Of a stretch of 38,540 nucleotides of DNA, positions 1 to 36,213 are shown piece by piece (position 1 is the first letter of the stretch; each line of letters begins with the position of its first letter). The DNA lies in IMG/VR virus record IMGVR_UViG_2541047933_000012; one strand, written 5' to 3'. Source of the stretch: a virus (Duplodnaviria > Heunggongvirae > Uroviricota > Caudoviricetes). A program made the position numbers and the translations under genes. The notes beneath the pieces are model-generated. The model saw nothing but the letters and a program-made list of their open reading frames with translations, was not told the DNA's origin and searched no databases.

Positions 1-129
1 ATGCTTATTGGCTATGTACGTGTGTCAACAAATGACCAGAACACAGATCTACAACGTAATGCGCTGAACTGTGCAGGATGCGAGCTGATTTTTGAAGACA
101 AGATAAGCGGTACAAAGTCCGAGACCTAG
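1..129 (+). pseudogene. Truncated serine recombinase (Pin/Hin-family DNA invertase) N-terminal remnant
   Basis: Translation from nt 1 gives MLIGYVRVSTNDQNTDLQRNAL..., the conserved invertase N-terminus with the catalytic Ser, ending at TAG 127-129 after 42 codons; intact invertases are about 190 aa. Confidence 0.55.
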
Positions 130-224
130 GGCTGACACTGCTGTTCTTGATGCAAATTAAAGTATTTAATAGTGAGTAGCGGCCTTACTAATGTAAGGCC
201 ACTATAATCATTTTATTAATTGCA

Positions 225-2174
225 TTAATCGTGTTTTGGCCATACTTTCAATGCAATTTCCCCCAACTTTTTACCCCGCTCCAGGATTTCATCCTCATCC
301 CATTTATCCTTAACTATAAGTGGAATGTTCAGTCGTAGATTGGTGTGGACGATGAGAGCATCACGTTTTTTCAGAAATACAGCATTCTGAACAGAACGGT
401 TTACGCTAAGGTTAAGCAAAGTTAGATTTCCCAAAGTAGATATCGCTTGTTGCCGTTTCCTTACCAGTAGCTGTTCAGGGGTAAGATCGGTTCCAGACAG
501 AACAATTTGGTTCAATACCGTAGCATCTGAATTTGTCACCATACGACCATTTTCGAGAGGCCAACAGGAATACCAACTTTGAGGCATAAGATGATCGATA
601 TCGAGATTAGAAAGATTTGGAACATCAGGCTTTTCTGTCTTTACTTGGCGACAAAGTTCTCTTTCAAGTTCCGTTAACATTGAGCGCATTTTCGGTGCGT
701 CGAGCCTGCCAGGATAAAGTGGAGCATTGATGCAAGCGTTGAGAAATTCTGAGTCACCAGGCCAACGTGAGGCTTCGCCATTTAAGTTATTGAGGATATT
801 ACGTAACTCAACACTGGAAATTTCCGTTTTAGCCAAGTGCCGCAATACATTCATAAATACATTGTTGTAATTCTTTGGCGTCAGGCCACATACGGCTCTT
901 CGTACTACGTAGGAGACAAGATCATTATACATGGCTGCTTTCTCATCATCAGCGATGTTAGCTATCGAAATGAACAAAGCAAGCGGATAAAGTGTCGTCA
1001 CATCATAGTCTGCGATGCGATATCCAAAGTGTGAGATGGGGGTTGTGCCAAAACCATCAACCAATTCTTTATATTGTGATGCATATTGTTTGAGGCGCTT
1101 TACTTGCAGATCTGCTCGTTGTGAAGACAAGTCCTTACTTACATAATCACGATACTCATTGTAAAGGCGAGACAGATCAATTTCACGTTGCCTTTCTGAT
1201 TGCAATGTCGCATGTACTAGCCACTCCATGCGTGGTTTATTAATACGTCCACGGCGTTGTTTTTCCGACCAGTATTTATCTTCAAAGCTCTTCCACTCAT
1301 TTTCATATAATTCAATAGCATTAATATTTTCATGCTCAGCGCACATAAAGATATAGTTGCGAATAAGATCCGTAGCATGAAGTTCCGCCCCTCGCCCATT
1401 TAATGTTTCAAAAATTATTTGGGCATCATCTTCAGCTTCGAGAAATATGCTTACCAGTTTCAGATCTGTTAAGACAGCCTCAATTAGAGCTACAGCATTT
1501 TCTTGTGGTGAGTGGTTTTCTATTTTAATCCATTTTATAAAGGCTTCAGTAAAAAAACATAATGCTTCTAGTGATGGCGGGTGATTAAAATGCTTACGCA
1601 ACGTACCATGCTGCGTGAAACTATCAGAGAATACGTCCCGGAGATCGTCAATATTTTCAACATTAAAACTTTGAATAAAATGAGTTTGATCCCGAAAAGT
1701 TGGCCACAGTTTGAAGCGTTCTACTTCTTTATTTCGCATTGTGTCTTCGTTTGAGTTTTTCAGGCAAGGCGAAATGAGAGCCTCTAAGCTGGAAAGATCC
1801 GTAGCACGTAATGCTAATCGGATGGATGCCAGAACATATTGAAGAGTGGTCAATCGTTGCTGACCATCAATAATATGTATGGAATCTACACCTAATAATC
1901 CTTTTTTTGATTGAGGTTCCAGTACAACCGCACCAAGGAAATGGGGAGTTGGTTTTGTACCCGAGAGCCGGGATTGTACTTTCTCTAGGATATCCTCCAG
2001 TAGAGCTGACCACTGGTCTTGCTGAGTCCATACATAGGCACGTTGATAGAATGGAACACAGTATTGTCGGCGGTCTTGAAAAAGTTGTTGGACAGTTAGC
2101 GTCTCGGATTTCATGGTATACCTGTAAGCGACATTGTACAAAAGTGAGGAGTTAATCTGATTTAGAACAATCAT
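225..2174 (-). CDS. DUF262/DUF1524 two-domain protein, GmrSD-like type IV (modification-dependent) restriction endonuclease candidate
   Basis: 649-aa ORF with N-terminal ParB-like DGQQR motif (IIDGQQRLTTL) and C-terminal HNH-like DUF1524 motifs (DIDHLMPQ, GNLTLLN). True start may be the internal Met at 2114. Confidence 0.6.
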   Translation of the reverse strand: MIVLNQINSSLLYNVAYRYTMKSETLTVQQLFQDRRQYCVPFYQRAYVWTQQDQWSALLEDILEKVQSRLSGTKPTPHFLGAVVLEPQSKKGLLGVDSIHIIDGQQRLTTLQYVLASIRLALRATDLSSLEALISPCLKNSNEDTMRNKEVERFKLWPTFRDQTHFIQSFNVENIDDLRDVFSDSFTQHGTLRKHFNHPPSLEALCFFTEAFIKWIKIENHSPQENAVALIEAVLTDLKLVSIFLEAEDDAQIIFETLNGRGAELHATDLIRNYIFMCAEHENINAIELYENEWKSFEDKYWSEKQRRGRINKPRMEWLVHATLQSERQREIDLSRLYNEYRDYVSKDLSSQRADLQVKRLKQYASQYKELVDGFGTTPISHFGYRIADYDVTTLYPLALFISIANIADDEKAAMYNDLVSYVVRRAVCGLTPKNYNNVFMNVLRHLAKTEISSVELRNILNNLNGEASRWPGDSEFLNACINAPLYPGRLDAPKMRSMLTELERELCRQVKTEKPDVPNLSNLDIDHLMPQSWYSCWPLENGRMVTNSDATVLNQIVLSGTDLTPEQLLVRKRQQAISTLGNLTLLNLSVNRSVQNAVFLKKRDALIVHTNLRLNIPLIVKDKWDEDEILERGKKLGEIALKVWPKHD

Positions 2175-2538
2175 TTTATTTTGCTATGATACAACGTATT
2201 TGTTACCGATTAAGTAAAAAACGCGTCTGAACGCTGACGTTTTAGGGCTTTACTGGTTATTCTTTCTTATCTCTTCATCATCCCATCGGCATCCTGTCGA
2301 GGTTGTTGACTTGTTGTTATTTATTTTGTCTAGGCGCTGTTTAATTATTATTGATAGAATTGATGGTGAGAGGTGATTGAAACCGTAGGCACGTCGTTTG
2401 CAAGGACGTGCTACGACTGGCTGGTGAACTTCCGATAGTGCGAGTATTGAATGATTTCCTACGTGCTAACTAGTGAACAAACAACTCTTCAGTAGACTCT
2501 CAGGTATCATTCAGAGTTTCCTGAACGAAAGTTTTAGC

Positions 2539-2717
2539 TCAATCTTTATCTGCAGTATGTCTAACTGAAAAACTATCGTTGCTGGTGGCTTTTACGATCA
2601 TCTCCACATCGTCATAACGCTTGCCAATGTGTTGGGTTAATTCTTCCTTTAACGCGTCCACAGCGCCGTTTGGCATTTGGTCATTTTGTCTTTGGCTATG
2701 GAGATCTCAATACGCAT
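2539..2717 (-). pseudogene. dinI-like SOS gene, apparently frameshifted
   Basis: Minus-strand ATG at 2717 gives [14 protein letters not shown], then stops; the rest continues one frame over as [37 protein letters not shown]. Both halves match the DinI family pattern; span length is not a multiple of 3. Confidence 0.5.
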
Positions 2718-2732
2718 AACACTTCTTTTGTA

Positions 2733-2776
2733 CTGCGTTTGTAGACAGTATTATTCTTATCTGTGTAAATAAACAG
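2733..2776. promoter_or_regulatory. Two tandem LexA (SOS) boxes upstream of the dinI-like gene
   Basis: CTGTGTAAATAAACAG at 2761-2776 is a perfect CTGT-N8-ACAG box; CTGCGTTTGTAGACAG at 2733-2748 has one mismatch. Both lie within about 60 bp upstream of the start at 2717. Confidence 0.5.
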
Positions 2777-2958
2777 TATCAAGACTTCGTTTTAGCTGCA
2801 TAAGAAAAAAGAGATGGATACATTCGGAAAGATTTTGATGGTGGTAGGCTAAGTGAATAGCCTAAAGGTGTTTTACCCCAATTATTCCCCGGTATTTCTC
2901 CGCATAAAAAACAATCATAAAAAAACCAGCCATAATAGGCTGGTTCTTAAGGGATTTT

Positions 2959-3015
2959 TGGTCGGCACGAGAGGATTTGAACCTCCGCCCCCCGACACCC
3001 CATGATGGCGAGCTA
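2959..3015 (-). other. Orphan 3-prime fragment of tRNA-Pro (anticodon loop through CCA), likely attR core; not a functional tRNA
   Basis: Reverse complement reads ...CATGGGGTGTCGGGGGGCGGAGGTTCAAATCCTCTCGTGCCGACCA, matching the 3-prime ~45 nt of enterobacterial tRNA-Pro (GGG) as recalled, with one T-stem mismatch; no D-arm or 5-prime acceptor strand follows. Confidence 0.55.
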
Positions 3016-17261: not shown

Positions 17262-17948
17262 TTAGAAGTTCAGATTTTTCAGTGCATTCAGTGCAGAGCC
17301 CACATCCTCAGCGTCGCGCAGGGACAGTGCGCCATAGCCCCCGGCCATGAATGCTTTGGCCTGGGTACGGGAGAGTCCGACATCACGCAGGACTCTTTCG
17401 ATTTTTTTCTGTTCGGGGATTTCCCCGCGGGCCAGTGCGTTCTTGACGTCGCTGATCCGCGCCTCGTCGTTAGACGGGAACGTCACCAGGCTGACTTCCC
17501 AGAGGTCGATTTCTTTCAGCAGAAAGGCTTCTTTGCTCCGGTCGTATTCCCAGTCTTTCAGGACGTACCCAATAGAAAGGCCGGTTAACGAACCGGCCTT
17601 CATGTGTGCATGTGCGCGTTTTGCGAGGGGATCATCATCAATAAGCAACCGTCCCCTGACGTAAAGCCCGACATCGTCTTCCTTCATTTCGGTGTAAACA
17701 CCGATGGGTTCATCCATGCGGTGCTGCCAGAGCAGCGCAGGTAACGCTTTTCTGTCACTCCACGCCCGCAGGGAAGCAGCAAATGCCCCGGACATCACCA
17801 CATCATCGTGGCTGTCCTTTACACCAAAGACGGAGCCATACCCTTCAAACTCACCGGAGTCACTGACAGATTTCAGACTCAGCGGTACATCAAGACGTTG
17901 TTTCGTCTGCATTGGCGTTATCCTTCTGCTTACCGGCTTTACTGCCAT
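17262..17948 (-). CDS. Prohead protease (HK97 family)
   Basis: 228 aa between the portal and capsid genes. Confidence 0.7.
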   Translation of the reverse strand: MAVKPVSRRITPMQTKQRLDVPLSLKSVSDSGEFEGYGSVFGVKDSHDDVVMSGAFAASLRAWSDRKALPALLWQHRMDEPIGVYTEMKEDDVGLYVRGRLLIDDDPLAKRAHAHMKAGSLTGLSIGYVLKDWEYDRSKEAFLLKEIDLWEVSLVTFPSNDEARISDVKNALARGEIPEQKKIERVLRDVGLSRTQAKAFMAGGYGALSLRDAEDVGSALNALKNLNF

Positions 17949-19131
17949 CGGAGGGTTTCGTGGTCATGTTCATCGGTGTGAGATAGACATCCCCACCGGG
18001 ACGGGGATTCATATCTTCCAGGTCGCGGCAGTCATTGGGAGAGTAAATTCCCCAGTTAATCCCGGTGGCGTAGGCTTCAAAACGGGACTTCATATCCCCG
18101 CGCAGTAACGCCCCGGCGTTAAATTTGGCGTAATAAACGCCCTGCTTACTTTTTCGAACCAGTCCGGTGTTGATCCGCTGCTCGATGCGGGTCAGATACG
18201 GCACCAGTGAATAGTTGATAAATCCCAGCCCCAGCTCTTCAATATTGTTGAAGGTGGCGCGATCGGTGTTCTGCACCATGTGCAACGGCACCCGGAACAG
18301 ACGACAGATTTCTTCAAGCTGAAACTTGCGGGTTTCCAGGAACTGGCTGTCCTCGGCGTTCAGCGCCATCGACTTCCAGTCCAGCCCCATCTCAAGGATC
18401 ATCGGGCGGTGAGCATTACCAAGCCCGGTGTGACGCTCCTCAAAATCTTTCTTCAGGCGCTCGTAAGCCTGATCTGACAGCGTCTGCTCTGTACGCAACA
18501 CACCCGACGTCACCGCACCATTGCTGAACAGTCTGGCCCCGTGCTCTTCGGTCGCAGCTGCCAGCGATATTGCCTCGCGGGCATAGGCGATGGGATTCAG
18601 CCCCACCAGACCGTCCAGCGTCAGCGTGCGCACATGCCAGATATCTTCCTGGCTCAGCACATCCGTGGAGCCGTCCGAGAATGTGACCTGATAGACCGGC
18701 TCCCAGCTACTGTTAAGCTTCGGTACCACACAGCCAGGATCGACGGGCAGCAGTTCAGCCACTTCGCCAAATGCTTTCACTTTGTAGGCGTAAAAGTTTC
18801 CCCGCAGGCACAGACAGGTGACCACCAGCTCCCAGAACTCCTGCGGCGTCATATAGCCATTGGGATGCGTGGAGATCAGCTTATGCAGACGTTCGCCGGT
18901 GGCCCTCTGTTTCAGGCTGCCGTTCAGGTGATACAGATTGCAGGGCAACATCCCGACCGACTCTGCCAGCACCCTGACGCAGGAAAAAACCGCCGTCAGT
19001 CGCATGGCCCGCTGGCTGCTGATCTGCTTTCCGGTATAGGTGTCGTATGACAGCCCGATAGCCTCCGCCAGCTCTGCTGGCGTGGTCACCGGCGCGTCAC
19101 TTTTTCGTTGAAATAATCCCGAAAAGAACAC
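17890..19131 (-). CDS. Portal protein (HK97 family)
   Basis: 413 aa; GTG start at 19131 preceded by GGAGG. Confidence 0.8.
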   Translation of the reverse strand: MFFSGLFQRKSDAPVTTPAELAEAIGLSYDTYTGKQISSQRAMRLTAVFSCVRVLAESVGMLPCNLYHLNGSLKQRATGERLHKLISTHPNGYMTPQEFWELVVTCLCLRGNFYAYKVKAFGEVAELLPVDPGCVVPKLNSSWEPVYQVTFSDGSTDVLSQEDIWHVRTLTLDGLVGLNPIAYAREAISLAAATEEHGARLFSNGAVTSGVLRTEQTLSDQAYERLKKDFEERHTGLGNAHRPMILEMGLDWKSMALNAEDSQFLETRKFQLEEICRLFRVPLHMVQNTDRATFNNIEELGLGFINYSLVPYLTRIEQRINTGLVRKSKQGVYYAKFNAGALLRGDMKSRFEAYATGINWGIYSPNDCRDLEDMNPRPGGDVYLTPMNMTTKPSDGSKAGKQKDNANADETTS

Positions 19132-19313
19132 TATTTACCTCCGCCGACAGACAGCTGTGTACGATCGAGATATCGCGCCACCAGCCACGACCAGAACAGG
19201 CACAGCGCCCCGGCAACAACAAAACCCGCCGGGGGATAAATCAGCCAGGCACCATATGCCAGCAAAAGCGCACCCAGCACGCCCACCAGAGGCGCGAGAA
19301 TCAGCATGATCAT
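19131..19313 (-). CDS. Small two-TM membrane protein between large terminase and portal
   Basis: 60 aa, almost entirely hydrophobic; GAGGT ribosome-binding site upstream; its TAG stop overlaps the portal GTG start. Confidence 0.4.
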
Positions 19314-19324
19314 AATTACCTCAG

Positions 19325-21058
19325 TTAAAGCGAGCGGATCCCGTAGGACTCAATGTGGTCAGACAGCGTGTCTTCTTTCTCGTACAACATGGCTCTGCCA
19401 ACCGCCATAATCAGCGCAACTGCACCATCGATTTTGTTTTCCGCCTGCTCTTTGACGGGTTTCACCACATCATCGTTACCCGGAATGGTTTTGCCGACCA
19501 CGTTGCCGATACACCAGGTCATGATGGGATTGCCATCATGATGAAAGCGCCCCGATTCAATTGCCGCTTCCAGCTCTTTCATCGGGTCGGACATGTTGGT
19601 GTAGTTCTGAATGATAGTGATGGGGTTCAGGTCTTCATCAGCAAGGTCATGTGACAACCCGGTCGCCCCGAAGGGGTCGATGGGTGACTCACTGACCGGG
19701 CTGATTTTGTTCGCCGCTTTGGCCTCCTCGAGGATGTAGCGATAATCCACCTCCGCACCATCGGTAACGGTCAGAACGCCCATTTCCACCCATTTCTGAA
19801 AGCGTTCGGCTGTCCGTCGATCTTCATTTTTCTCGACGCTGTACACCGTGTCATACGGTACCCAGAAACGCGGGGCCACACTGTAGTAATGCGTTTTACC
19901 GTCAATCTCGCGGGTATAAAGTCGCGCCATGCTGTTCATATCCAGCTTACGCGCCAGGTCAAAGGCCAGAATGCACGGCTGCCCCTCGAACTGCTCAAGG
20001 GTCAGTGATTTATCCTCGCAGCTCTGCCAGCTCACCAGGTTGAAATACGCCGAACGCGCCGACACCCAGATATTGAGGTGTTTTGTTTTAAAGACGTTTG
20101 CCAGACGGGCGTTATTTTTCGCACGCTGCTGCTGACTTAACAAAAATTCGCGATAAACCGACACGCCAATATTTGGATTGGCTTTTTCCAGCACCTGCGG
20201 GTCGGTCCAGTCGTCACCTTCATCAACGGTATAGATGATCCCGAACAGTTCATCGTTAGGCACCGAGCCATTGAGCATCTCGATGACTTCCCGCCGCTTG
20301 TCGTAGCACGGCCCCTCAATGTTGTACCCGGCGGTGGTGATAGCCCACATCAGTGGCTGACGTCGCGCCCCCATCCCGGTAAGCATCGTGGTGTAAAGCG
20401 CATCGGTGGCGTGCTCGTGATATTCATCCACCACCGCACAGTGGGGTGATGAACCATCACCGGGGTTACCGATCAGCGGTTCAAACCGCGCGCCATCCTC
20501 CGGACGGTTCATGTTTGAGGCGTTAACCTCAATCCCGAACGCTTCCGTCAGCATGGGTGTGCGTTTACACATCAGTCGAGCCGGGCGAAAGACTTCCCAC
20601 GCCTGTTTCTCTGTCGTGGCACCGGAATACACTTCCGCGCCAAACTCGTTATCACAGGCAAAACAATACAGGGCAACACCGGCAGAGATTGCCGATTTGC
20701 CGTTCTTACGGGGGATTTCGGTATACACCTCCCGGAAGCGGCGCAGCCGGGAGCCTTTATTGACCCAGCCAAACGCGCAGCAGATCACAAAGAGCTGCCA
20801 CGGCTCCAGCGTGATGGGCATCCTCTTAAATGCCCACTCACCCTTGGTGTGCGGCAACAGCTGAATAAATTTGGCGGCCCGTTCAGCCAGGTCCTTGTCG
20901 AAGCGGTAACGAAACGACTTACTTTTTTCCGCCATCAGGTCATCAAGATGGCGCTGGCAGGCCTGAATCACAAACTGGCAGGCCACAATCTTTCCGCGCA
21001 CGACATCCCGGGCATACTGATTGGCAGCATTTACGTTGGGGTAAGATTTCCGGCTCAT
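19325..21058 (-). CDS. Terminase large subunit
   Basis: 577 aa, the size and position expected for TerL, downstream of the small subunit with a 4-bp overlap. Confidence 0.9.
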
Positions 21059-21558
21059 GATTCGATGATTTTCAGAAACGGGTTAGTGGCTTTCTTCTGC
21101 CCCGCCAGGCCAATCAGACGCTGACGGCTGCTGGGGTCGAGTCCGAGCATTGCCCCCGTGCTGCTCATCTCGGACTCCTGTTCTTTTTTGGCTGTCAGCT
21201 CCGGATTTTTGACCCTGCCGCCCATTGCGCCGGTGATGGTATTGCCCTGTATGGCAATATTTTTCACAGCACGTCGCCAGAACTCATAGGCCACGCACCA
21301 CCGCTCAAGCACCGCGAGGTCAGTCACGCACAGCAGGCCCTGACCGCAGAGTTCTTTGGTTGTCAGTTGCCACATGATCGTGGCGAGAGGGAGATCTTCT
21401 TCAGCGAACCACTCCGGTGGCTCAACACCTTTGATGGGCGTAAAAACAGGTTCATCTTTGTTCAGGGCTCGCTTGCCGGGGTTTCCGGCCAGCGCCTTGC
21501 GCGCCGTTGGCTTGGGGCGACGCCCGGAACGCCCCGCCGTTCCAGCCATATGCGGCAC
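21055..21558 (-). CDS. Terminase small subunit (P27 family)
   Basis: 167 aa, basic N-terminus; directly upstream of the large subunit. Confidence 0.7.
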
Positions 21559-34713: not shown

Positions 34714-35238
34714 ATGTCATTTATTAAAACTTTTTCCGGGAAGCATTTTTATTATGACAGGATAAATAAAGACGACATCGTTATTAACGATATCGCGGTT
34801 TCTCTTTCAAATATCTGTCGCTTTGCAGGACATCTTTCACATTTCTACAGCGTCGCCCAACATGCGGTGCTTTGCAGCCAACTGGTACCGCAGGAATTTG
34901 CTTTTGAAGCGTTAATGCATGATGCAACAGAAGCGTATTGCCAGGACATCCCGGCGCCACTGAAACGCCTTCTTCCTGACTATAAACGGATGGAAGAAAA
35001 AATAGACGCCGTAATCCGTGAGAAATACGGGTTACCCCCGGTTATGAGTACGCCCGTGAAATATGCCGATCTCATCATGCTGGCAACCGAACGCCGCGAT
35101 CTCGGGCTTGATGATGGCTCTTTCTGGCCCGTACTGGAAGGTATCCCGGCAACAGAGATGTTCAAAGTTATTCCACTGTCGCCAGGCCATACCTATGGGA
35201 TGTTTATGGAACGCTTTAAAGAGTTAACTGAGTCGTAA
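34714..35238 (+). CDS. yfdR: YfdR-like HD-domain phosphohydrolase
   Basis: HD motif (H...HD in SVAQHAVL...MHDATE); start taken at the ATG at 34714 with GGAG upstream. Confidence 0.6.
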   Translation: MSFIKTFSGKHFYYDRINKDDIVINDIAVSLSNICRFAGHLSHFYSVAQHAVLCSQLVPQEFAFEALMHDATEAYCQDIPAPLKRLLPDYKRMEEKIDAVIREKYGLPPVMSTPVKYADLIMLATERRDLGLDDGSFWPVLEGIPATEMFKVIPLSPGHTYGMFMERFKELTES

Positions 35239-35346
35239 AAATCAGCACGTACGAATTCAAACTCTGCCATAAAAGAACATATAAGTAATTTATTAACATA
35301 TAGATATAGGTTATATTACAAATTGAAAAATTATTGGAGAGCAACA

Positions 35347-36213
35347 ATGAATCAAAATCCATTCTCATTCTATGACTTTCTTGGATATTTAATACCAGGT
35401 GGTTTTTTTATCCTATTAATGTATTTCTGTGGTTTGACATTCGATCTAGATATTGTTATTGACTTAAGTGAATTGCTCAGAGGTCAAAGTCAAATCTTTG
35501 GCATTTTGAACTACGCTTCAATAGTTATTATATCTTATATAGCTGGACATTTTATTTCTATCACGTCAGCATTTTTTATCGAAAAATACATGAATAAAGA
35601 ATTAGGATATCCTTCCAAATATCTATTTAAAAAATTGATAGATACCTCAGAAAGCATTTGTAGCCCATCATGCGATGAGAGAAGCGCTGATAAAAAAACA
35701 AAAATAAAGAATCGCATAATCAAATGCGTATTATGTCCAATAATACTATGGGATTTTATAACACAAAAACTATGTTATTCTCAATCTCTACCATTTCATT
35801 TAGCTAATACAACATGGTTAATGATCAAAGAAGGTTATGAGAAAAAGTTCATAACAAATCGCCAATTATTACAAGATAAAAACGGACTTGATGATGATCT
35901 CTTCAGATTGGCATATCATTATGTTTATGAGTTTTCAAAACAACATCAAACAAAAATTCAAAACTATGTTGCATTATATGGTTTTTGCAGAAACATATGT
36001 TTAATCTTTATAATTTCATTTTGGGTATCAGTTCCAACCTTTATTTATCGATTATGTACTCATAGTGATTATCTTTATAGTTTACTTTCAATAATGCTTA
36101 GCTTTTTCTTCGTCTATGTTTTCTATGTTGGTTTTGTTAAATTTTATAGAAGATATACTTTAGAAGTATTAATGGCATTTGCTGTACTTCAAAGTAACGA
36201 CACTATTCGTTAA
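35347..36213 (+). CDS. Multi-pass membrane protein (AT-rich moron), unknown function
   Basis: About 288 aa from the ATG at 35347 with GGAG upstream; at least five hydrophobic TM-like segments; visibly AT-rich. Confidence 0.5.
   Translation: MNQNPFSFYDFLGYLIPGGFFILLMYFCGLTFDLDIVIDLSELLRGQSQIFGILNYASIVIISYIAGHFISITSAFFIEKYMNKELGYPSKYLFKKLIDTSESICSPSCDERSADKKTKIKNRIIKCVLCPIILWDFITQKLCYSQSLPFHLANTTWLMIKEGYEKKFITNRQLLQDKNGLDDDLFRLAYHYVYEFSKQHQTKIQNYVALYGFCRNICLIFIISFWVSVPTFIYRLCTHSDYLYSLLSIMLSFFFVYVFYVGFVKFYRRYTLEVLMAFAVLQSNDTIR

Follow-up and report, generated by a model that had tools for sequence, protein, structure and literature searches.

The viral record IMGVR_UViG_2541047933_000012 (Caudoviricetes), a stretch of 38,540 nucleotides (nt) referred to below as the window, carries on its minus strand a gene of 60 codons placed between the genes for the large terminase subunit (TerL) and the portal protein. 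This gene belongs to the ymfR family and encodes a small protein predicted to form a helical hairpin in the inner membrane. We propose tentatively, and partly by analogy with phage T4, that YmfR acts late and at the inner membrane, in connection with the portal, as an accessory to head assembly or packaging. The identity of the gene, the predicted topology of its product, its co-expression with late genes and its linkage to the portal are shown or strongly supported by the data presented here; from these, and again by analogy, we infer a mechanism acting at the portal step. The coordinates of all features are collected in Table 1.

As a gene, ymfR is already known and named (ymfR, Sb3 or PHROG 502). 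Over its full length the protein is identical at 59 of 60 residues (98%) to YmfR of Escherichia coli K-12 (b1150, cryptic prophage e14), and RefSeq labels DNA that is 100% identical as ‘ymfR: protein YmfR’. It also matches PHROG 502 (“membrane protein”) with E 1.5e-27 over residues 1-55. The counterpart in ST64B is Sb3, labelled ‘membrane protein’, and that in SfII is SfII_03; the order terminase, ymfR, portal is the same in K-12, ST64B and SfII, and the window gene is a member of this family. All three features that define YmfR and PHROG 502 were found in the window, namely the sequence match, the pattern of two helices, turn and glycines, and the place before a portal gene of the PF04860 family. 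The DNA around ymfR is 95-98% identical to that of ST64B, SfI, SfII, SfIV and 118970_sal3, and 86% identical to that of phiP27; the source element is a prophage of the ST64B/SfI/SfII/e14 type. A 251-nt query was found in 1362 of the 5426 complete E. coli genomes, i.e. in about a quarter of them. Our literature searches on a membrane protein between terminase and portal, on ST64B Sb3, on the SfII integral membrane protein and on small phage genes returned nothing on its role, and in the literature searched ymfR itself appeared only in gene lists, deletions and one transcriptome table.

In K-12, ymfR lies between the terminase pseudogene aaaE and the portal remnant beeE. The genes that flank it in e14 are thus decayed, whereas the packaging and head module of the window is intact. 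It should be added that in decayed e14 copies (L306, 5550-5732; also L258 and L260) ymfR keeps its 60 codons intact, with the terminase and portal genes on either side truncated or reduced to pseudogenes; this could be due to chance, the gene being short, or could hint at selection in the host.

The set of close relatives consisted of 80 viral contigs with portals at least 99% identical to that of the window. The open reading frame (ORF) was intact, at 60 codons, in 80 out of 80, and was represented by 36 nucleotide alleles. The ratio of nonsynonymous to synonymous substitution rates (dN/dS) relative to the window ranged from 0.07 to 0.47, with many synonymous changes at codons for invariant Gly, Pro, Ala and Cys. 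Taken together with conservation down to about 30% identity, this is far more than would be expected of a chance reading frame. Judged from these sequence comparisons, ymfR is under purifying selection and encodes a real protein. An antisense ORF of 50 amino acids (19157-19309, plus strand) was also considered and was dismissed as not real, since the pattern of substitutions fits the frame on the minus strand.

The protein has a grand average of hydropathy (GRAVY) of 1.29, and its residues 1-46 are uncharged, the first charged residue being R47. An AlphaFold2 model built on an alignment of 116 sequences is a helical hairpin with helices at residues 2-25 and 27-56 and a mean predicted local distance difference test (pLDDT) score of 86. 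Among 118 family members, G14 and G21 are kept in at least 98%, G35 in 117 and W23 in 85%, and the counts in the columns of the turn are 83 for Y, 72 and 97 for the two P, 95 for A and 104 for G. The family core may be written as G..G......(Y)GAW.(I)(Y)PPAG(F)I..G. Lysine and arginine are present in the tails (1.55 per sequence across the family in the N-terminal tail and 2.19 in the C-terminal one) and hardly at all in the turn (0.16). By the positive-inside rule, both ends of YmfR are therefore predicted to be cytoplasmic, with the YPPAG turn at the periplasmic face.

The C-terminal tail is poorly conserved except for R/K47 and the final G-G-x, the latter doubling as the ribosome-binding site of the portal gene; across the family the C-termini often read GGE, GGD, KEG or EGx, which correspond to GGAGG-like codons. 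Codon 54 (19152-19154) stands out by six amino acid alleles (S, P, L, M, T and Q) among the 80 loci with portal identity of at least 99%. It was considered as a site of interaction or of an arms race, and this was rejected, as there was no covariation with residues of the portal or of the TerL tail. With an entropy equal to that of synonymous sites and no such covariation, the residue is simply unconstrained. Searches of YmfR or its family in Pfam, NCBIfam, PADLOC and PDB sequences, and with Foldseek against viral models, yielded nothing informative; the family profile run against PDB at E<=1 returned only chance matches to CD3.

The signals around the gene tie it closely to both neighbours. 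Upstream, the TerL stop (TAA, 19325-19327) and the ymfR start are separated by 11 nt; the junction reads TAA-CTGAGGTAATT-ATG, i.e. the TerL stop, then GAGG and then the start codon. Downstream, the distance is -1 nt, as the TAG stop of ymfR (19131-19133) and the GTG start of the portal gene (19129-19131) have a G in common (TAGTG), and the 3' end of ymfR reads GGC GGA GGT AAA TAG TG. The stop codon and the last codons of ymfR thus form the translation start region of the portal gene. The gene has a GC content of 0.59, with 0.64 at third codon positions, the corresponding values being 0.54 and 0.66 for TerL and 0.56 and 0.69 for the portal. A fusion of ymfR and portal by programmed frameshifting was considered and rejected: there is no slippery heptamer at GGT AAA TAG TG, and the 3' ends of relatives differ.

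An earlier note on this DNA, made from the letters alone, had described a peptide of 60 amino acids, almost wholly hydrophobic and with two transmembrane (TM) segments, which had a good ribosome-binding site and was coupled to the GTG of the portal. The GRAVY value and the AlphaFold2 hairpin agree with the first point, the GAGG placed 5 nt before the ATG with the second, and the shared G of TAG and GTG, together with the portal GGAGG inside codons 58-59, with the third. The note called the junction of terminase and portal ‘normally tight’, which is justified: the portal start of HK97 directly overlaps its TerL stop, with no ORF between them. It had further pointed to topology prediction and to conservation in related head modules as checks. 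The former gave the predicted hairpin with both ends in the cytoplasm; the latter gave the intact ORF in all 80 close relatives, and its absence from HK97 itself.

The position before the portal extends far beyond the close relatives. At 33-47% identity (marine and other metagenomes, Gilliamella) the gene order is HNH, small terminase subunit (TerS, Terminase_4), TerL, X, portal, protease and capsid, where X stands for the small ymfR-family gene. In these relatives X begins within the stop region of TerL, and its own stop codon either overlaps the start of the portal gene or directly adjoins it; nearly all relatives have an overlap of 1 or 4 nt between X and the portal gene. Proteases of both the S49 and the S78 type are encountered downstream, which ties X to the portal alone rather than to the head module as a whole. 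A motif scan, with one genome taken per species, provided 35 loci from Enterobacterales, Reyranella, Shinella, Rhodospirillales, Rhodoferax, Lysobacterales, Ruminococcaceae and Streptomyces, and in 33 of them the beginning of a portal gene falls at or within the X stop codon. We also inspected 15 phage records, drawn as an even-step sample from those with portals 20-39% identical to that of the window. Here the family was found before the portal in Vibrio K322, Mycobacterium phage Klein (gp11, ‘membrane protein’), Burkholderia vB_E174 and Ralstonia YO168_1, and a comparable hydrophobic mini-ORF occupied the same place in Bacillus BtiUFT6.51-F and Lactobacillus JNU_P1. Counted by portal clade, the family occurred in all loci examined from the clade of the window (80 of 80) and likewise from the SfV clade (80 of 80), the copy of SfV being unannotated.

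Such regular overlaps could in principle mean that the ORF is a translational coupling device, which passes ribosomes from TerL to the portal gene and sets the rate of portal translation while the peptide itself has no function. The portal ribosome-binding site lies in its last codons, the stop-start overlaps recur in nearly all relatives, and the GGAGG would explain the conserved C-terminal G-G-x. We nonetheless consider this very improbable, because the amino acids of the membrane core are conserved (G14, G21 and G35), synonymous changes occur there and dN/dS is well below 1. Moreover, HK97 couples TerL to the portal directly and has no such ORF, and a mere spacer would not retain a two-TM hairpin across phyla.

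Further evidence for the linkage comes from mosaic genomes of two kinds. In four loci (L042, L053, L075 and L083) the DNA becomes homologous to that of the window from 19342 on, six codons short of the end of TerL, and stays so through X and the portal gene, with a TerL protein that is only 37% identical; phages phi467 and 606R7 follow the same pattern, with homology from 19342 and TerL replaced. SfV, on the other hand, shares the TerL of the window up to about 19406; beyond that point its TerL tail is a different one, its X is divergent and its portal is only 27% identical. From these two independent kinds of mosaics it follows that the unit of exchange is the C-terminal tail of TerL, X and the portal. 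As the tail travels with ymfR and portal, the sequences suggest that it may be co-adapted with the portal. Mosaic joints are thus recurrent within the last 6-27 codons of TerL (window 19342 and ~19406).

As regards expression, a consensus scan of the coding strand revealed neither a sigma-70-like promoter nor an intrinsic terminator beside ymfR. In K-12, ymfR RNA rises by log2 4.5 under SOS-inducing treatment, together with ymfL, ymfM, ymfQ, tfaP, pinE and xisE (PMC10012262). As indirect evidence, this would fit ymfR as a part of the induced late programme and not as a moron expressed in the lysogen. A rho-independent terminator is annotated in the SfII record (L004, NC_021857) at 1896-1945, about 19256-19305 of the window, in the 5' part of the ORF; the consensus scan of the coding strand of the window finds none there.

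These data bear on the possibility that ymfR is a gene of lysogenic conversion, a moron or superinfection exclusion gene made by the resting prophage for the benefit of the host. The category given to PHROG 502 is ‘moron, auxiliary metabolic gene and host takeover’, and in cryptic e14 the ORF is still intact amid pseudogenes of terminase and portal. Known exclusion proteins are small proteins of the inner membrane, such as HK97 gp15 and T4 Imm; HK97 gp15 is the product of a moron inside the late operon, acts in superinfection exclusion at the inner membrane and has its own expression in the lysogen. YmfR resembles gp15 in being a small inner-membrane protein encoded among the morphogenesis genes of an HK97-like phage. 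It differs in that ymfR lacks its own promoter and terminator, is turned on along with the prophage and occupies the same position across phyla, unlike morons. Its start, moreover, is 11 nt from the TerL stop or, in relatives, overlaps it, and its base composition is the same as that of the head genes. The K-12 RNA is induced with the rest of e14 and not apart from it (PMC10012262), and no PADLOC match was obtained among five family members. All this makes a conversion gene very improbable.

The mechanism that we favour, with reservation, is as follows. The gene lies in the late packaging and head operon and would be translated after TerL from its own ribosome-binding site. At the inner membrane, the YmfR hairpin would then assist, without being essential, in that step of head assembly or DNA packaging which involves the portal; it could, for instance, provide newly synthesised portal protein with a place on the membrane where rings form or the prohead is initiated. 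There is a precedent in T4, where the portal protein gp20 is assembled at the inner membrane and both viral gp40 and the host protein YidC assist (PMC9958956). T4 gp40 would be comparable as a virus-encoded helper of membrane-bound portal assembly, and only as a functional analogue (PMC9958956). No similarity of sequence between the two proteins was detected, and the T4 portal comes from a different family. Gene 40 of T4 is not adjacent to gene 20.

Several observations weigh against this reading. The conserved residues of YmfR are glycines, aromatics and the turn, all within the membrane, and the parts that a soluble portal could reach, the cytoplasmic tails, are short and vary in sequence. 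With tblastn, a test of low sensitivity, the 60 amino acids gave 28 matches in 50,697 phage records, none of them T4-like. Since X lies between a possibly co-adapted TerL tail and the portal, its co-inheritance with the latter could be hitch-hiking. Two orphan copies of alphaproteobacterial origin (L284, 534-749; L288, 1054-1257) have no portal or terminase beside them, and they are the sole exceptions in the set of 35 loci. Such a gene was missing from 9 of the 15 sampled phages with related portals, namely HK97, Xanthomonas phiL7, Serratia Niamh, Streptomyces Samora, Bacillus A16R1, Mycobacterium Redi, Staphylococcus StauST398-2, Streptococcus Javan57 and an Acutalibacteraceae phage, and none of the 80 loci examined from the portal clade of HK97 had a member of the family. 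These absences mean that it is not needed for HK97-type assembly in general. Finally, the hydrophobic motif MFFSGLF at the N-terminus of the portal was considered as a partner of X and was dropped. It is present also in portals without X (the Acutalibacteraceae phage and Samora), and so gives no correlate.

The location of conservation raises the question of a late membrane effector that is independent of the portal. Such a protein would tune membrane potential or the timing of lysis in the manner of an antiholin or pinholin, or would block late superinfection; its hairpin would oligomerise or dock on a universal host membrane machine, and the place before the portal would serve only for timing and dose. 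We regard this as the main alternative; though less likely than not, it is nearly as probable as the portal-linked role. In its support, conservation is focused in the membrane, at glycine-rich helix-packing positions, and not in the cytoplasmic tails, and the occurrence of the gene in some but not others of a set of otherwise similar head modules agrees with an accessory function. YmfR also resembles class II holins and pinholins such as S21 of phage 21: both have about 60-70 amino acids, two TM helices with both ends cytoplasmic (for YmfR, as predicted), a glycine-rich first helix and a short basic C-terminal tail. Lysis genes can, furthermore, sit among packaging genes, as do T7 17.5 and 18.5 beside 18 and 19.

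Against this effector, ymfR stands outside the lysis cassette, which is complete and lies elsewhere in the window, about 3.7 kb away (22996-24297), with its own holin of the LydA type; relatives too have holin or lysin genes of their own. YmfR and 116 family members showed no homology to holins in Pfam, NCBIfam or the holin-annotated PHROGs. There is no conserved dual-start motif, the N-terminal variants being MIM, MFL and MIL. The gene for such an effector should, moreover, turn up in various places in the genome, whereas in 33 of 35 loci it directly precedes a portal gene.

A further comparison is that with lambda, where gene W likewise lies between A (TerL) and B (portal) and is of similar length. 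Lambda gpW is a soluble portal-binding protein with a solved structure. In contrast, YmfR is by prediction a membrane hairpin, with its high GRAVY value and a family profile that has no PDB match. The label ‘head-tail joining protein W’, which the gene bears in ON470584, ON470603, ON470580 and PQ793804, looks like a positional mis-transfer from the A-W-B order of lambda. YmfR is not the main holin of the phage, not lambda W and not a classical moron.

For its role the earlier note had offered a packaging accessory, exclusion or a holin-like function. A portal-linked role is now the favoured one, while exclusion expressed in the lysogen and the function of main holin are disfavoured. Its view of the gene as native rather than acquired, based on matching GC, holds well: the composition is like that of the neighbours, there is no promoter or terminator, and the position is kept at 33-47% identity in other bacterial classes.

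A role in the particle itself was weighed too. As a minor virion or ejection protein, YmfR would be packaged with or near the portal and would help DNA to cross the inner membrane at the next infection. The gene does stand in the head block beside the portal, and a hydrophobic hairpin could insert into the target membrane. We hold this to be highly improbable, as a protein whose hydrophobic part takes up 46 of 60 residues would be expected to stay caught in the membrane of the producer cell. In virion mass spectrometry of mycobacteriophage Omega, the portal gp13 was listed and gp12 was not (PMC3706429). The missing gp12 is a weak argument, given that small hydrophobic proteins are hard to detect and that gp12 is only a presumed homologue of Klein gp11.

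The family to which ymfR belongs is broad. A word-indexed search returned 166 close homologues in Escherichia, Salmonella, Citrobacter, Yersinia, Hafnia, Klebsiella, Buttiauxella and Enterobacter. A profile built from 24 homologues and run against 1.84 billion cluster representatives recovered 388 clusters (50% identity) at E<=1e-3, nearly all of 45-80 amino acids. Relatives occur in Enterobacterales, Alpha- and Betaproteobacteria, Vibrio, Burkholderia, phages of Mycobacterium, Ruminococcaceae and Streptomyces, and the family is recognisable down to about 30% identity. Nearly all of these relatives directly precede a portal gene of the HK97 type. Divergent members make up PHROG 7105 (SfV type), and PHROG 1142 (Bacillus type) is weakly linked; neither has an assigned function. 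We found no published account of this breadth or of the coupling to portal genes in the literature searched, and the breadth of the family together with its strict coupling to portal genes appears undescribed.

On a more general level, it is conceivable, although we consider it doubtful, that the YmfR family is a widespread and largely overlooked part of HK97-type portal modules which reveals a membrane-bound step of nucleation or tethering of the portal ring. With the same doubt, that step would apply to a large number of siphoviruses and myoviruses from Proteobacteria, Actinobacteria and Firmicutes, where assembly in the cytoplasm alone has been assumed. If YmfR is a portal helper, a part of HK97-type head assembly is placed at the membrane, as in T4; if it is a membrane effector, it represents a new class of small late-acting proteins. 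The gene merits attention also because it is present in E. coli K-12 and because its family is far wider than annotation implies and is often missed by annotators.

Unannotated members were noted in SfV (NC_003444, L095, 2289-2450), PY54 (NC_005069, L002, 2295-2492), Burkholderia vB_E174 (L296, 2215-2400) and Ralstonia YO168_1 (L298, 2238-2396). In Bacillus BtiUFT6.51-F (L297, 2323-2484) there is an unannotated analogous mini-ORF of PHROG 1142 in the same place. In SfV the portal gene is annotated from 2392, a position within the small ORF; the true start is likely the GTG at 2440, which would put the annotated one about 48 nt too far upstream. Two records are credited to Gram-positive hosts: OR844959, ‘Enterococcus phage Efm 3-10’ (1764 bp), has about 95% DNA identity to this E. 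coli prophage segment, and L259, from the metagenome-assembled genome ‘Bacillota bacterium’ JAEWTL010000102, has a 98% identical small protein with the same TerL and portal. Both likely result from contamination or mis-binning.

Table 1. Features of the window around ymfR and in the lysis cassette, with the basis of each assignment.
Feature	Position	Strand	Basis or remark
ymfR-family gene, protein of 60 amino acids, predicted inner-membrane helical hairpin	19131..19313	minus	ORF listing and translation; 183 nt, ATG start, TAG stop
Shine-Dalgarno GAGG of ymfR	19319..19322	minus	5 nt 5' of ATG, straight after the TerL stop
TM helix 1, codons 2-25 (predicted)	19239..19310	minus	Hydropathy; AlphaFold2 helix 2-25, pLDDT ~90; Gly 11, 14, 21 and Trp 23
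Y-P-P-A-G turn, codons 26-30, periplasmic (predicted)	19224..19238	minus	Helix break at residue 26
TM helix 2, codons 31-46, with Gly35 (predicted)	19176..19223	minus	Hydropathy, AlphaFold2, column profile
Short basic cytoplasmic tail, codons 47-60 (predicted)	19134..19175	minus	Column profile, charge counts
Portal gene, GTG start	17890..19131	minus	PF04860, E 4e-108 (Pfam); 1-nt overlap with ymfR stop
GGAGG ribosome-binding site of portal	19138..19142	minus	Inside ymfR codons 58-59
TerL gene	19325..21058	minus	PF03354 and PF20441; end 11 nt upstream of ymfR
Last 6 codons of TerL, mosaic joint	19325..19342	minus	ymfR and portal kept together downstream even where TerL is replaced
TerS gene, P27 / Terminase_4 type	21055..21558	minus	PF05119, E 3.9e-20
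HNH endonuclease gene, 5' of terminase genes	21675..22025	minus	PF01844, E 5.4e-14
Rz	22996-23433		Lysis cassette
Endolysin	23430-23906		Lysis cassette
LydA-type holin	23893-24297		Lysis cassette

Apart from these features, the window has islands of low GC content (0.34-0.42) at 1-3000, 22001-23000, 24001-25000 and 35001-36000, the prophage as a whole being at about 0.55. These islands may represent cargo or moron genes, including an ORF of 649 amino acids at 225-2174 on the minus strand.

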